Assembly (NCBI GenBank): GCA_046757565.1
Contig: JBHHYN010000001.1
Coordinates: 11,466-75,465 of the forward strand
Direction: 5' to 3'
Origin: Gammaproteobacteria bacterium
GTDB lineage: Bacteria > Pseudomonadota > Gammaproteobacteria > Eutrophobiales > Eutrophobiaceae
Length of the DNA stretch: 64,000 nt
How positions within the stretch are numbered: the first letter of the stretch is position 1; each line of letters starts with the position of its first letter. The notes below the pieces were generated by a model. It was not told where the DNA came from. It made no database searches and worked only from the letters and a program-made list of their open reading frames with translations. This document shows, piece after piece, positions 52,973 through 58,630 of this stretch. A program made the position numbers and the translations under genes.

Positions 52973-53833
52973 TTAAAACATTGCCAGTGTTGTCTCATAG
53001 GCACTTGTCACCAGCTTGTCAAGCGGCCAGGAGCGCATGGATTTATTCAGTACTTCTATGCCGTAGGGTCCTTCATAGCCTGCGTTTTGCACGGCTTTTA
53101 TCAGCCCCTTGATATCGAATTCACCTTCTCCGCACAACAACCTGTGATTGACTGTCTGCTCACTCCAATCACCGCTAATCTGTGCCGGACCGTCATTGAT
53201 TTCAACGCCCTTCAGATATTTCAACGGCAGCTTTTCGGTAGTGGTATTGGGTATCTTGAGTGAATGGAAATGCCATATATCTACCATTAATCCACCGTTC
53301 GCGGCGCCGGCGCCCTCGACCAGGACCAGTGCCTCATCCAGATCACCGGGCGTGCTCCACGGAATTAATTCAAACACAATATCCGTGCCGTGTTCGACAC
53401 CTTCCGCACATAATTTCGAATACTCTTCGATTAATCTCTCCATGGGGCAGGGAGCGCCAATAAAATCGCCAATCTTTATATGGCGGGCTTCGAGTGTCTC
53501 GGCTGTACCCAGCAATAACTTCCTGATCCGGTCAGATTCCTTGCGTTGTTTCCCGTCGGAGAACCAGCCGGTAATGAATTCCAGTTCCACATGCTTGATC
53601 CCATTGTCATCCAGTATGTGCTTCATCTCTGTAACCGTCCGGGACTCAAGGATATGCTCGATGTCAGCGTGCCAGAAACCCATACCCCTGAAACCCGCCT
53701 TGGCACAGGCCTCAACACGGTCCCTGAAATCAAACGGGCTGTATTCCGGGCCGGTATGGGGGATCGCCCCTCCGGCGATGGTCCAGTATGAGGCCAGTAA
53801 CTCGACACCGGCCCCGTGATGATTATGTGGCAT
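52973..53833 (-). CDS. Xylose-isomerase-like TIM-barrel protein (sugar phosphate isomerase/epimerase, AP_endonuc_2 family)
   Basis: 286 aa with the family's spaced metal-ligand pattern (..HVELEF.., ..IVFELIPW.., ..VDIWHF.., ..GIEVLN..). Specific activity (isomerase or dehydratase) cannot be assigned. Confidence 0.75.
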   Translation of the reverse strand: MPHNHHGAGVELLASYWTIAGGAIPHTGPEYSPFDFRDRVEACAKAGFRGMGFWHADIEHILESRTVTEMKHILDDNGIKHVELEFITGWFSDGKQRKESDRIRKLLLGTAETLEARHIKIGDFIGAPCPMERLIEEYSKLCAEGVEHGTDIVFELIPWSTPGDLDEALVLVEGAGAANGGLMVDIWHFHSLKIPNTTTEKLPLKYLKGVEINDGPAQISGDWSEQTVNHRLLCGEGEFDIKGLIKAVQNAGYEGPYGIEVLNKSMRSWPLDKLVTSAYETTLAMF

Positions 53834-53899
53834 ATTATTTTCCTCTGGCTATTTATGTATCAAGCCTGAAGACTCCGGTCAATGATGTTCAGCAGGCGC

Positions 53900-54673
53900 T
53901 CAAAAGGCCACATGCATCATATAACCCCCATCAACATGCAGGTTTTGCCCAACGGTATTGCCTGACAACGGGCTTGCCAGAAATACCACCGCGGCAGCCA
54001 CTTCCTCGGGTGTCCCCAGCCTGCCTATGACACACTGCCGCAGTGCATCGTCATAAACTTGTGGCGCATTCTGCTTGATATGATCCCAGGGACCCTTTTC
54101 GAAGTAGATCGGGCCCGGTGATACCATATTGACCCGAATGCCTTCCCCGGCGAACTCCTTGCTGATCTGGGATCCGTAGGCGATGAGTGCAGCCTTACAT
54201 GAACCGTAGGCCACTATACCCGGAGCTTTCAGCACCTTTGACATTAGGCCGGAGATGCTGGCGATCAATACGATCGCACCTGCATCTGATTTGCGTAAGT
54301 GGGGCAGTGCGGTTTCGCAGCCATGTACCGTGCCAAGGATGTCCGTGGCAATCTCCTTTTGCCATCCCTCCTCGCCGGCCGCGACAGGCCCGGCGGAGAC
54401 ATTGGAAACAAATATGTCGAGACCGCCCAGTCGTTCCGCCGCAGAATCGATCCATGCCACATAGGATTCCTTTTCCGTGATATCCACAGAGTCGCCAATC
54501 GCATGAACACCTTTCTGCTTCAATTCATTGACCGCCCCGTCCACACCAATCCGGTTGCGGGCACAGATGGCAACGTCAGCGCCTTCGTCCGCGAGTAGAT
54601 GGGCGATACGTAATCCGATACCTCTTGATGCACCGGTAACAATAGCCCGTTTACCCTTGATTTTCAGATCCAT
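53900..54673 (-). CDS. Short-chain dehydrogenase/reductase (classical SDR)
   Basis: TGASRGIG cofactor motif, NVSAG, catalytic Y-x3-K (YGSCKAAL), PG motif VSPGPI. Confidence 0.9.
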   Translation of the reverse strand: MDLKIKGKRAIVTGASRGIGLRIAHLLADEGADVAICARNRIGVDGAVNELKQKGVHAIGDSVDITEKESYVAWIDSAAERLGGLDIFVSNVSAGPVAAGEEGWQKEIATDILGTVHGCETALPHLRKSDAGAIVLIASISGLMSKVLKAPGIVAYGSCKAALIAYGSQISKEFAGEGIRVNMVSPGPIYFEKGPWDHIKQNAPQVYDDALRQCVIGRLGTPEEVAAAVVFLASPLSGNTVGQNLHVDGGYMMHVAF

Positions 54674-54713
54674 GTTACCCTCCGGCCTGTTTCCGCCTAT
54701 GGCGTGGGAAGTT

Positions 54714-55957: not shown

Positions 55958-55966
55958 ACCGGTGTC

Positions 55967-57124
55967 TCACGGATCCTGTGTCACAAACATCAAACTGAAA
56001 ACCCGATCCTCGTCCGCCGGTTTACCGCCTTCAGCATACTCGAATGACTCATCGACAATGTGTCCGGTTTTGGTTTCTATTTCATCAATTGTGTTGTTAT
56101 CGATTAGGCCCGATGAGAGCAATCGTTCCTTCATTCGATCGATTGGATCACGCTGCCGCCACTTTTCTATCTCTTGCTCTTCCCGGTAGGTTCCGCTGAG
56201 GAACTGTGCTTCAGCCTCGATATGACCATGTATCCGATAAGTCCTGGCCTCAATGAATGAGGGCCCTTCCCCTCTCCTCCCCCGCTCAACAGCGGTGGCG
56301 GAAGCTTCCGCAACGGCGAGTACATCATTACCATCCACCACGGTTACCGGTATGCCAAAGGCACGGGCGCGATCGCTGATTTCTCCCGCAGTGACGGTTG
56401 ATGAAGGCGAGAATTCTGAAAACGTGTTGTGTTCGCACATAAAGATCATCGGCAAGTTCCAAAGTGTACTGATATTCAATGTCTCCATGAACACTCCCTG
56501 GTTTGCCGCACCATCTCCAAAAAAACAGACAGCAACCCGGCCATCATCATCAAGCTTCGCTGCCCAGGCCGCACCCAGAGTAATGGCCAGGCCGGCTCCA
56601 ACGATGCCATTCGCCCCCATGATGCCTTTACTGACATCGGCGACGTGCATGGACCCCCCCATCCCGTGGCAGATGCCGTTATCGCGCCCATAGATCTCGG
56701 CTATCATTGTTTCCGGTGCGCCACCCTTTGCAAGGAAATGACCATGACCGCGGTGTGTGCCGGTAATCCAGTCGGAATCGTTCAACTGGGAGCATATACC
56801 GACCGCTATGGCCTCTTGTCCGATGTAAAGATGTACCGCCCCCGGTAATTTGCCTGCAAAAAACTCCTTGCTGAGCCGCTCTTCTATACGCCGGATTAAT
56901 ACCATCCGCTCATACATGGCCAGCTGGCACTCCGTATCGGGAATGTGTCCCCCGCTAATTGGCGTCACGGTTTTGGCCTCTTCGATTATATGGTTATTAT
57001 TTTTACCGGTAATCGATGTATACACTGTATCCGGAATATATAAAAGGATATGTCGCGAAACACAGAAAGTTTCCCGACATAGTGTAAGGATTGTTCGATT
57101 CTTTATGACAGCAATATCGTGCAT
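55967..57124 (-). CDS. TPP-dependent E1 component, alpha subunit (probable true start is the GTG at ~56968, giving ~333 aa)
   Basis: YERMVLIRRIEERL...HLYIGQEAIAVG...THRGHGH...GMGGSMH...TPP motif FFGDGAANQGVFMETLN. A GAAGAGG SD-like sequence lies 8 nt upstream of the internal GTG. Confidence 0.85.
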   Translation of the reverse strand: MHDIAVIKNRTILTLCRETFCVSRHILLYIPDTVYTSITGKNNNHIIEEAKTVTPISGGHIPDTECQLAMYERMVLIRRIEERLSKEFFAGKLPGAVHLYIGQEAIAVGICSQLNDSDWITGTHRGHGHFLAKGGAPETMIAEIYGRDNGICHGMGGSMHVADVSKGIMGANGIVGAGLAITLGAAWAAKLDDDGRVAVCFFGDGAANQGVFMETLNISTLWNLPMIFMCEHNTFSEFSPSSTVTAGEISDRARAFGIPVTVVDGNDVLAVAEASATAVERGRRGEGPSFIEARTYRIHGHIEAEAQFLSGTYREEQEIEKWRQRDPIDRMKERLLSSGLIDNNTIDEIETKTGHIVDESFEYAEGGKPADEDRVFSLMFVTQDP

Positions 57125-57232
57125 CCTGTGCAGCAGCCGCCCGGATTTCGCCGTGTACGGGGGGGGCGACCGCCGCTTTAGCCGGTCGCTCCTGCTTCAC
57201 CTCAAATCACAGTGACCTTGGTGTCGTCCGGC

Positions 57233-58630
57233 TTATCCTTTGCCGGTACGCCAGCCTTCCGCGTAGGTTTCGCGTGCAACACTGGAGTAAGGGGCAGGAC
57301 TGACTACAGCGCGGATTTCGATCTGCCTGTGGCGCTCGACCGTCAGTTTTTTCGATCCGCCGCCCTCTTCGCCCCACACGAGTGTGACTTCGGCGCCGAT
57401 GTCGATGTCCGGATCCACCGTGGCCAGTGACAGCATGCTGCGCTCGTTGTAGGTGTAGCCGGCGAACATGGAAAAGCCGACGGTTTTCCCGTTGCTGACT
57501 ATCTTGTCATAGGACGCGGAGGTGTAATTCGATAACGGCATGTCGATATATTTGTAGATATCTCCCTGTTCGAACAGGGAACTGAAGGCCTTAATGACAT
57601 CTTCACTGTTCCAGGCCAAGGTCACTTTATGCCGTTGCGATTTCTTGTCCATCTCCTCAAGGGCTTCTCTGCCGATAAAATCGTGATCGAATTTAACAAA
57701 AGGTCCGTACCCAAGCGCATAAGGGGTCATATAATAGTCTTCAATATTATCGGAGGTGAAGCTGCCACCGATGGAGCCCGAACCCTCATAACCGGCCGCC
57801 GGCAACCACTCCCTGTATGACTTCATCTTCTCACCGGTATAGACCGCCGGCAGGGGTGACGGGATCCAGCCTGATTCCAGTGTGTTGGTCGCATAAGCCC
57901 TGGCGCCGACCTGGGCAAGCCTGAATTCCTTACCGGCTTCAATGATGGCCTCACGGATTTCCTCGCGCTCCTCGTATGGACCCCATACCTCCAGTCCCGG
58001 TGCACCGGCCATGCCATGACGCAAGGCGCGCACCTCTCTTCCCGCGATGTTGATAGAACCCATATTGAAAAACTTGATGTCCGGAAATGGCCCGCCGTTC
58101 AGTTTTTCAATGACCTGCTCGGCATTCGGTCCCTGGATCTGGTAACGGTAACTGATGCGGTTGACTGCTTTCCCTTTCGCATTACCGGGGGAACGGTCAT
58201 CTTTTTTTATAGATACATCGTACCCGCCTGTCTCGGCCTGGAATTGAATCCAGTTGGCAGACGGCGCGCGGCCGACAAAAAGCAGTCTGTTCTCCTCAAG
58301 ATAAAAGAGAATTCCGTCGCCAATCACGTATCCATCGTAATTACACGGCACGTACTGCTTGGCTTTATTGACCGAGAAGTTTGCGAAGGTATTGACAGCA
58401 GTATCGGAGGCCAATTTAATGGCATCGGGCCCCTCAATATAGATATCCACCATATGATGGGACTGATCGTAAAGAACGCAGGTCTCCCGCCAGGCGCGTT
58501 GTTCATCACGCCAGTTAGAGAATTCACCTGGGACCACAGGATAGACATAGGCGCCTATCTGCGAATTGCGCAACATTTCAACCGGATTACCAACTGTCTG
58601 TAACAAGCCCTCCAAGCTTTGAGTACTCAT
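57233..58630 (-). CDS. GcvT-fold tetrahydrofolate-dependent methyltransferase, long (~465 aa) LigM/DesA-like aryl O-demethylase clade
   Basis: 465 aa versus ~365 aa for true GcvT. Blocks [92 protein letters not shown] match my recollection of Sphingobium LigM/DesA. Not verified by search. Confidence 0.7.

Follow-up and report, generated by a model that had tools for sequence, protein, structure and literature searches.

A cluster of six co-directional genes on the minus strand (positions 52973-58630) was analyzed within a 64-kb window of the gammaproteobacterial contig JBHHYN010000001.1; by the window we mean the whole stretch of 64,000 nucleotides. The core of the cluster is a thiamine pyrophosphate (TPP)-dependent E1alpha/E1beta pair followed by a gene for a free lipoyl carrier protein, and the best explanation of these sequences is an E2-less TPP/lipoyl module of acetoin dehydrogenase (Aco)-type descent, in which only the lipoyl domain would have been kept from the E2 acyltransferase. 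The accompanying genes encode a short-chain dehydrogenase/reductase (SDR), a metal-dependent triosephosphate isomerase (TIM)-barrel protein and an orthologue of the aryl O-demethylase LigM. Our tentative proposal, possible though short of probable, is that the module performs acyloin-type C-C cleavage of the oxygenated side chain of a methoxylated, lignin-derived aryl ketol, with LigM acting last.

The lipoyl protein, encoded at 54714..54956 (minus strand, as are all six genes), is 80 aa long and consists of a Biotin_lipoyl domain alone (Pfam, 1.1e-15), with the lipoyl-lysine K43 in an IETEKV motif (codon 54828-54830). Its best NCBIfam match was the N-terminus of AcoC (NF011457). A reading of the window made from its sequence alone (the sequence-only reading) had noted that this protein ends directly after the swinging-arm domain, and the comparison with other genomes bore this out: it is a stand-alone gene with its own stop codon in 43 loci, and the IETEKV motif was at least 90% conserved across the 43 orthologues of 78-100 aa. 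No E2 catalytic domain (2-oxoacid_dh) was found anywhere in the 64-kb window, and neither AcoL nor any other flavoprotein of the size of the dihydrolipoamide dehydrogenase E3 was found in the cluster or among the annotated open reading frames (ORFs) of the window, in agreement with the absence of E2 and E3 reported earlier.

The E1alpha gene (55967..56968) encodes an acetoin-dehydrogenase-like, TPP-dependent subunit of 333 aa (Pfam E1_dh, 1.7e-79). Its ORF is open to 57124, but translation most probably begins at the GTG at 56968, since homologues measure 327-345 aa and span the resulting 333 residues completely (100%). The TPP motif of E1alpha is intact (GDG151-153 ... N181), as previously noted for the pair. 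The E1beta gene (54983..55957) encodes a protein of 324 aa with Transket_pyr and Transketolase_C domains (Pfam). E1alpha scored below the equivalog cut-off for pyruvate dehydrogenase (PDH) (TIGR03182; 309.9 versus 393.85), and E1beta below that of NF006667 (291 versus 321). In a pairwise comparison, which is not a tree, E1alpha and E1beta were 45.5% and 43.6% identical to the E1 subunits of Aco-type operons so named by PGAP. The nearest E1 homologues in annotated replicons of cultured bacteria were 44-48% identical and lie in operons comprising E1alpha, E1beta and the acetoin dehydrogenase dihydrolipoyllysine-residue acetyltransferase (AcoC), to which one operon adds a lipoate ligase (LplA). 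The human E1alpha subunits of PDH and branched-chain 2-oxo-acid dehydrogenase (BCKDH) were more distant (E = 6e-51 for PDH E1alpha). The best matches of a plasmid search (Sphingobium TKS, MI1205, and B90A; 60% identical) were an E1alpha gene interrupted by IS6100 and were uninformative.

To describe the distribution of the module, E1alpha, which has very many relatives at 63-82% identity, was searched with one genome per species, yielding 60 loci, 58 of which formed the clade and two (L060 and L061) an outgroup; co-occurrence was scored by tblastn with the six window proteins combined with gene calling that takes account of G+C content at third codon positions (GC3) and with clustering. E1alpha, E1beta and the lipoyl gene occurred together in 52 of the 58 clade loci, with the lipoyl protein always encoded by a separate gene (78-100 aa). 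A 2-oxoacid_dh domain was absent within 10 kb in all 58 loci, and an AcoC-type hydrolase domain was found neither in the window nor adjoining the module in the clade loci, the two matches obtained being weak and outside the module. The two outgroup loci (Anaerolineae, 48-51% identical) encode an E2 in full, comprising the lipoyl, E3-binding and catalytic domains, and the lipoyl-only state thus defines the clade. Carriers were found in the Gammaproteobacteria (Steroidobacterales, Woeseiaceae, Lysobacterales, and others), in Acidobacteriota, Bradyrhizobiaceae and Xanthobacteraceae, and in one actinobacterial metagenome-assembled genome (MAG) (Streptosporangiales); sphingomonads also carry it, among them the three cultured strains Sphingobium subterraneum DSM 102255, S. 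fluviale CHR27, and Sphingomonas chungangi CGMCC 1.13654. The conserved unit is E1alpha-E1beta-lipoyl, with or without the TIM-barrel and SDR genes. Our literature search found no work assigning a function to this module, consistent with the earlier remark that no characterized pathway has this gene set, and the paper on Novosphingobium MBES04 contained nothing relevant to it.

Among known systems, the module comes nearest to the acetoin dehydrogenase system AcoA/AcoB/AcoC/AcoL, exemplified by the acoABCSL genes of Pelobacter carbinolicus (PMC3543383) and the Aco-type operons of loci L068 and L069. In that system, E1 splits the ketol into acetaldehyde and a lipoyl-borne acetyl group, and SDRs of the butanediol type accompany the genes (PMC3543383). 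The window cluster shares with it a heterotetramer-type TPP E1alpha/E1beta pair (about 44-46% identical), a lipoyl domain that most resembles the one in AcoC, an SDR companion comparable to the butanediol dehydrogenases beside aco genes, and the expected cleavage of a ketol to an aldehyde and an acyl-lipoyl intermediate. It differs in that E2 has shrunk to a lipoyl domain of 80 aa and lacks any acyltransferase or alpha/beta-hydrolase portion; in that the cluster has no gene for E3, AcoX, AcoR or lipoate ligase; in that the module has a partner of TIM-barrel or vicinal oxygen chelate (VOC) fold; and in a genomic context of aromatic catabolism rather than butanediol. With the E1 components of pyruvate and branched-chain 2-oxo-acid dehydrogenases (1NI4, 1UM9, and 1DTW), the pair has the fold and the TPP motif in common, whereas its scores lie under the equivalog cut-offs and there is neither an E2 core with a peripheral-subunit-binding domain nor an E3.

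The TIM-barrel gene (52973..53833) encodes a protein of 286 aa (AP_endonuc_2, 2e-21) in the Lmo2234/QuiC1/IolI subgroup of metal-dependent, xylose-isomerase-like barrels. Its orthologues (43-52% identical) stand beside E1alpha in 16 loci. When the look-ups were started from the TIM-barrel protein, lipoyl, E1alpha and E1beta genes were adjacent in 3/3 cases, with another gene order in 2/3, which independently supports a functional coupling. The AlphaFold model, for which 51 homologues were used, had a mean confidence (pLDDT) of 93.8, and a Foldseek search with it gave Lmo2234 (2G0W), IolI (1I60) and the QuiC1 domain (5HMQ), with template modelling (TM) scores of 0.85, 0.83, and 0.81, respectively. 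TM-scores of 0.81-0.85 relate the protein to the group of QuiC1/QsuB, AsbF, Lmo2234 and IolI, whereas the sequence identity is just 16-24%. The active site of QuiC1 comprises ten residues, R64, L97, E134, L136, D165, H168, Q191, S206, R210, and E239 (PMC7442255). In a profile alignment, five of the ten were identical (E155, D185, H188, R231, and E260, corresponding to QuiC1 E134, D165, H168, R210, and E239), two were conservatively replaced (I157 and T227), and three were changed (R64 to T88, L97 to K120, and Q191 to E211). Barrels of this kind carry acidic or His metal ligands on strands 4, 6, 7, and 8; the acidic metal-ligand positions E155, D185, E211, and E260 were invariant in the 51 homologues, and the family has invariant residues of its own (H55, D57, E83, E85, H118, and K120). 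By its modelled fold and these metal-ligand positions, the protein groups with the xylose-isomerase-like metal barrels (PF01261), and it is predicted to act as a metal-dependent isomerase or dehydratase on a hydroxy-carbonyl substrate. The three changed residues argue that it is not a standard dehydroshikimate dehydratase, and the dehydroshikimate dehydratase model NF042435 gave 46.7 bits against a cut-off of 1200. Of the earlier guess of an IolI-, IolE- or dehydroshikimate dehydratase-like enzyme, the structural kinship with Lmo2234, QuiC1 and IolI was thus retained and the orthodox dehydroshikimate dehydratase was excluded. A role as a C-glycoside deglycosidase (CarB/DgpB-like) was also considered, prompted by a set of a glucose-methanol-choline (GMC) oxidoreductase, a small subunit and a TIM-barrel protein in locus L003; it was dropped, as the window and most loci lack a set of that type and no CarC/DgpC-like partner was found.

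Upstream of the TIM-barrel gene lies that of the SDR (53900..54673; 257 aa), a classical oxidoreductase of this family (adh_short_C2, 1.2e-48) with the motifs TGASRGIG and YGSCK. It reached no NCBIfam cut-off (BudC, 139.6 versus 270). Orthologues with 61-71% identity stand beside the E1 genes in nine loci and in L070, and other SDRs are found elsewhere. The gaps between E1alpha, E1beta, lipoyl, SDR and TIM-barrel genes are 9, 26, 40, and 66 bp, and the layout is accordingly that of ligM, a spacer, and then a tight five-gene unit. The spacer between ligM and E1alpha (56969..57232; 264 bp) possibly holds an internal promoter and shows no convincing terminator; a scan of it for promoter and terminator consensus sites found no more sites than in shuffled sequence. 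At position 56999, in an A/T run of this spacer, independent Logan contigs have one additional T.

The gene at 57233..58630 encodes a protein of 465 aa with the GcvT fold, which the sequence-only reading had likened to LigM and DesA. The LigM part of that comparison held, with 782 bits against a cut-off of 580 for the LigM equivalog (NF047885), and the DesA part did not, the score (687.9 bits) being under the cut-off of 800. Grouping with ordinary GcvT or DmdA found no support (80.7 and 44 bits), and the model for trimethylamine N-oxide demethylase also scored far lower than LigM. The structures of Sphingobium lignivorans SYK-6 LigM (5TL4 and 5X1I) aligned over residues 4-462 with E = 5e-204, whereas T-proteins in the PDB matched at only 1e-12; these are 364-381 aa long, in line with the earlier observation that the window protein is about 100 aa longer. 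It shares with SYK-6 LigM the GcvT fold, this extension of about 100 aa, the same length, and an identity of about 68% over the full length. Y30, H59, R121, and Y246 of the window protein fall in an ungapped block of the 5TL4 alignment opposite LigM Tyr31, His60, Arg122, and Tyr247, the active-site and aromatic-substrate-binding residues reported in the 2017 structure papers, with Tyr247 as the catalytic one. On this sequence evidence, the protein is assigned to the LigM family as an orthologue, and it is predicted to form protocatechuate or gallate by demethylating vanillate or 3-O-methylgallate, with tetrahydrofolate as the methyl acceptor; given this identity, its most likely substrates would be aromatic acids. 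The LigM family is very large and its members are closely similar, with more than 100 clusters at 77-87% identity. The three closest relatives for which the gene context was available (81-87% identical), labelled by the Joint Genome Institute as vanillate/3-O-methylgallate O-demethylase, all have methylenetetrahydrofolate reductase (MTHFR) adjacent, and two of the three also adjoin MetH and a second GcvT-like paralogue. On two marine metagenome contigs, L076 and L077, the closest LigM relatives stand in tandem with a second, 470-aa GcvT-like paralogue, and the opposite strand carries MetH, MTHFR and then a LysR-type regulator. This layout suggests that methoxy-aromatic methyl groups there go directly to methionine and C1 metabolism.

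The genes adjoining the module in other genomes were also analyzed. The most frequent neighbours were SDRs (25 loci), VOC/glyoxalase-fold proteins (19), TonB-dependent receptors (16), aldehyde dehydrogenases (15), Amidohydro_2 proteins (11) and pyrroloquinoline quinone (PQQ)/cytochrome c alcohol dehydrogenases (9), together with transporters of the major facilitator superfamily (MFS) and regulators of the MarR, IclR, GntR and AraC families. The SDR, aldehyde dehydrogenase, VOC and PQQ alcohol dehydrogenase neighbours fit the logic of an acyloin pathway. Sets of a dikinase, a biotin carboxylase and a HAD phosphatase were found in eight loci, with the domain make-up of AcvAB, AcvCDE, and AcvF, the components of the acetovanillone pathway (PMC12624787). 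In L017 such an acv-like set is co-linear with E1alpha-E1beta-lipoyl, the tightest link observed between the module and aryl-ketone catabolism. The full string at 6450-19431 of that locus, a Candidatus Acidoferrum MAG, reads MarR, an RPE65/lignostilbene-dioxygenase-like protein, SnoaL, E1alpha, E1beta, lipoyl protein and acvABCDEF-like genes. Acetoacetate-CoA-ligase-type genes were present in four loci, LigB-type dioxygenase genes in five, PcaHG in L073, RPE65/lignostilbene-dioxygenase-like genes in four, and UbiD/UbiX in L004. The closest analogue of the window is L040 (Steroidobacterales), which contains an acv-like cluster, LigM (738 bits) and a gallate dioxygenase (735 bits; cut-off 412), followed by E1alpha-E1beta-lipoyl-TIM-SDR, an extracytoplasmic function sigma factor with FecR, a TonB receptor and an MFS transporter. 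In total, at least one lignin-aromatic marker was found in 16 of about 64 loci, an association with aromatic catabolism that is suggestive but not universal.

Two further sets, each including proteins without a Pfam match, recurred near the module. In seven acidobacteriotal loci (L012, L014, L017, L019, L021, L025, and L065), a 110-170 aa protein of the UGSC family is paired with a Pfam-less protein of 380-470 aa, and up to three such pairs adjoin the E1 module. In L018, L027, L028, and other Steroidobacteraceae, Pfam-less secreted proteins are encoded upstream of the TIM-barrel gene, in the stretch that separates the TIM-E1 genes from an aldehyde dehydrogenase gene; one type is ~350 aa long and often tandem-duplicated, and the other, of ~185 aa, may be cupin-like as judged by eye.

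In the proposed route, the SDR would set the oxidation state of the side chain at C2-C3 by interconverting diol, alpha-hydroxyketone and diketone, and the metal-dependent TIM barrel would shift, epimerize or dehydrate the ketol, a task that VOC proteins may take over in other loci. The E1alpha2beta2 enzyme would then let TPP attack the carbonyl and break the adjacent C-C bond, as AcoAB does on acetoin, releasing one fragment as an aldehyde and leaving the other as an acyl group on lipoyl-K43 of the free carrier; such release of an aldehyde accords with the frequent aldehyde dehydrogenase neighbours. The acyl group would be released and the dihydrolipoyl arm re-oxidized in trans, through housekeeping E2 and E3 or a hydrolase, and the aromatic product, vanillate or 3-O-methylgallate, would finally be demethylated by LigM. 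The overall outcome would resemble that of AcvAB-AcvCDE-AcvF-VceAB (SYK-6) and HpeHI (Rhodococcus), which strip the keto side chain of guaiacyl and syringyl monomers to give vanillate and syringate. The chemistry would differ entirely, as Acv works through phosphorylation and a biotin-dependent carboxylation and not through TPP/lipoyl cleavage, and the window contains no acv genes. The benzaldehyde lyase of Pseudomonas fluorescens biovar I catalyzes the TPP-dependent acyloin cleavage of the lignin-model compounds anisoin and benzoin, and its host was isolated on lignin-model compounds. The likeness lies in TPP-dependent cleavage of an aromatic acyloin; unlike the E1 pair, that enzyme is a single-chain, non-oxidative protein of the decarboxylase type, has no lipoyl acceptor, and is not homologous to E1alpha/E1beta.

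Several observations weigh against this proposal. LigM adjoins the module in two places only, the window and L040, and the single conserved six-gene unit that co-occurrence might have revealed was not found; no E1 genes were present near the three closest LigM relatives (81-87% identical), and in the window itself the 264-bp gap parts ligM from the module. An aromatic marker is missing from the surrounding 10 kb in about three quarters of the module loci, and in some marine gammaproteobacterial loci the neighbours are sulfatases, DUF3604 or aminotransferases. The marker counts are also raw, the loci being phylogenetically non-independent and the counts having no background rate. The window, from a vent gammaproteobacterium-like host, differs from SYK-6 in that its 64 kb hold no ring-cleavage genes; it likewise holds no aldehyde dehydrogenase, E2 or E3. 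In SYK-6, ligM adjoins metF and ligH, whereas neither gene was found in the cluster or among the annotated window ORFs, although their presence is not a strict criterion for LigM. Finally, the nearest structural relatives of the modelled TIM barrel use carbocyclic ketols (dehydroshikimate and inosose), not aryl ketols.

A non-aromatic ketol as the substrate is an alternative that we regard as rather unlikely. The compound could be hydroaromatic or a cyclitol (dehydroshikimate- or inosose-like), sugar-derived, or a short aliphatic acyloin; the TIM-barrel protein would be the dehydratase or isomerase and E1 the ring or chain cleaver, and LigM would share with them at most the protocatechuate/gallate pool. 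The closest folds (Lmo2234, QuiC1, and IolI), with the metal ligands and the His/Arg pair kept, favour such a substrate, as do the many module loci without an aromatic marker, several of them with sulfatases, and the rarity of LigM beside the module together with the spacer that precedes it. On the other hand, the changes at T88, K120, and E211 speak against a standard dehydroshikimate dehydratase, Pfam scans of representative neighbour clusters revealed no iol- or qui-specific family, with the sugar-type GMC oxidoreductase sets near some loci unassigned, and genes for aryl-ketone carboxylases, lignostilbene-dioxygenase-like proteins and gallate dioxygenase are co-linear with the module in several phyla.

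Still less probable is a role of E1 as a genuine 2-oxo-acid dehydrogenase acting on an arylglyoxylate, for example vanilloylformate. The TIM-barrel protein would then convert Ar-CO-CH2OH to Ar-CHOH-CHO, an aldehyde dehydrogenase and the SDR would carry this to the 2-oxo acid, and decarboxylation by E1 would give an aroyl-lipoyl group whose hydrolysis yields vanillate for LigM. Such a route is in keeping with the E1 family being that of 2-oxo-acid dehydrogenases, with the TIM-barrel family including hydroxypyruvate isomerase (weak matches), and with the frequent glyoxalase-fold neighbours, and it makes vanillate directly, as would suit a window lacking an aldehyde dehydrogenase. The closest relatives of E1 and the lipoyl protein, however, are of the acetoin (acyloin-cleaving) type and not of the PDH/BCKDH type, and the aldehyde dehydrogenase neighbours in other loci suit an aldehyde from the cleavage step equally well.

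The scheme of the sequence-only reading itself has the LigM-like enzyme act first, followed by the SDR, the TIM barrel and the TPP enzyme; applied to a methylated sugar or cyclitol (pinitol, for example), where it would be analogous to IolG/IolE/IolD, it now appears very improbable. IolI ranks among the structures closest to the TIM-barrel protein, and the gene order can be read that way; the demethylase, however, lies above the LigM equivalog cut-off, conserves the aromatic-binding residues, has closest relatives adjoining MTHFR and MetH, and stands outside the conserved module. We know of no tetrahydrofolate-dependent cyclitol O-demethylase. The substrate proposed there is thus poorly supported, and the identity of about 68% to SYK-6 LigM would place the enzyme at the end of the route, on vanillate or 3-O-methylgallate, rather than at its start. 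An ordinary acetoin or pyruvate dehydrogenase operon deprived of E2 and E3 by misassembly or recent deletion, to which the resemblance of the E1 subunits and the lipoyl domain to Aco/PDH components might point, was rejected as having a negligible chance of being correct, as independent assemblies from two runs of hydrothermal-vent metagenomes contain the identical six-gene block at even depth, the lipoyl-only gene is kept in several phyla and ends in a stop codon of its own, the E2-less layout recurs in the clade with no E2 domain nearby, and the scores fall under the PDH equivalog cut-offs.

The cluster is bracketed by two copies of a 158-bp miniature inverted-repeat transposable element (MITE), at 52754..52911 and 58751..58908, both on the plus strand; the earlier description of six co-directional genes between two MITEs was correct, with every ORF present. 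The element has terminal inverted repeats of 26 nt and, at its centre, a hairpin whose stem is 13 bp long. The two copies differ at two positions and have the same orientation, and no third copy was found in the window. Each copy has a perfect target-site duplication of its own (8 bp), AACATTTT for the left copy (52746-52753 and 52912-52919) and ATTTTATT for the right (58743-58750 and 58909-58916). The differing duplications indicate that the two MITEs inserted independently and that the cluster was not carried as a composite element. In the vent metagenomes, the depth of the MITE was 1000-5500 compared with about 12 for the cluster and flank (100-450x). The element is thus extremely abundant in the genome or the community, and at hundreds of copies the occurrence of two copies 6 kb apart is unremarkable. 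The depth of the island (12.1) matched that of the flank (11.8), and no contig skipping the island, as expected of an empty site or an excised form, was found in three vent runs. The GC content, GC3 (0.56-0.62) and codon usage (codon distance 0.13-0.14) of the six genes lie inside the spread of 29 other window genes. Taken together, the separate duplications, the hundreds of MITE copies and the host-typical codon usage do not bear out the recent acquisition that the MITE flanks had suggested; an older horizontal origin of the cluster is possible. A second inverted-repeat pair, AAGGGRACAGATTTATTTTT (52608-52627/52926-52945; 95% complementary), encloses the left MITE and has a third copy of the 20-mer at 12829-12848. 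This pair may be another small mobile element that was hit by the MITE insertion.

Directly upstream of ligM, on the same strand (58966-63953), lies an operon for a group-4 (Hyf/Ech-like) membrane-bound [NiFe]-hydrogenase, which ends 57 bp from the right MITE. Its small subunit is NuoB-like and its large subunit a NuoC/D-like fusion, and it also encodes antiporter-like and NuoH-like subunits. The remainder of the window is housekeeping in character, with genes for NAD kinase, RecN, AddAB, MltF, a GH130/glycosyltransferase cluster, a tmRNA and an ATP-binding cassette (ABC) exporter. The cluster at 13301-19533 places two GH130 (mannoside-phosphorylase-like) genes beside two large GT4 glycosyltransferases, one of them fused to a mannose-6-phosphate-isomerase/cupin domain. 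The only two RNA genes found were the tmRNA (tag ANNDNFALAA; 11842-12201) and tRNA-Ser(CGA) (44603-44692). The tmRNA tag, like the gene content, points to a gammaproteobacterium. An EgtD-like histidine-specific S-adenosylmethionine-dependent methyltransferase (Methyltransf_33, 1.5e-104), a marker of ergothioneine-type biosynthesis, is encoded at 42858-43868, and about six copies of the tandem heptamer GGTTCRG lie at 52562-52605, directly past the stop codon of the ABC exporter.

The enzyme that cleaves aromatic diketones and ketols (G-diketone, GP-1, and GP-2) is still listed as unidentified in published work (PMC8612281). In the part of the Novosphingobium aromaticivorans G-diketone supplement to which our comparison extends, the gene list held only the housekeeping E1 genes of PDH and 2-oxoglutarate dehydrogenase, and this species probably lacks the module. 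Any link of the module to that open question is consequently by analogy only. The more specific notion that E1, the lipoyl protein, the TIM barrel and the SDR form a new E2-less TPP/lipoyl class for the C2-C3 side chains of arylglycerol-derived or Hibbert-ketone-type aryl ketols is doubtful, more so than acyloin-type cleavage as such; the module itself is widespread in soil and marine Acidobacteriota, Gammaproteobacteria, and Alphaproteobacteria. Whatever the substrate, an E1 that is paired with a free lipoyl protein and lacks an E2 core poses the question of how the acyl group leaves and what re-oxidizes the lipoyl arm. The occurrence of LigM in a hydrothermal-vent bacterium, beside a group-4 hydrogenase operon, hints that methyl groups or carbon are drawn there from methoxylated aromatics. 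The module is a concrete, testable four- or five-gene candidate for side-chain shortening of lignin-derived phenylpropanoid ketones and ketols and, if the proposed function is correct, would supply the missing kind of enzyme in aromatic diketone and ketol catabolism.

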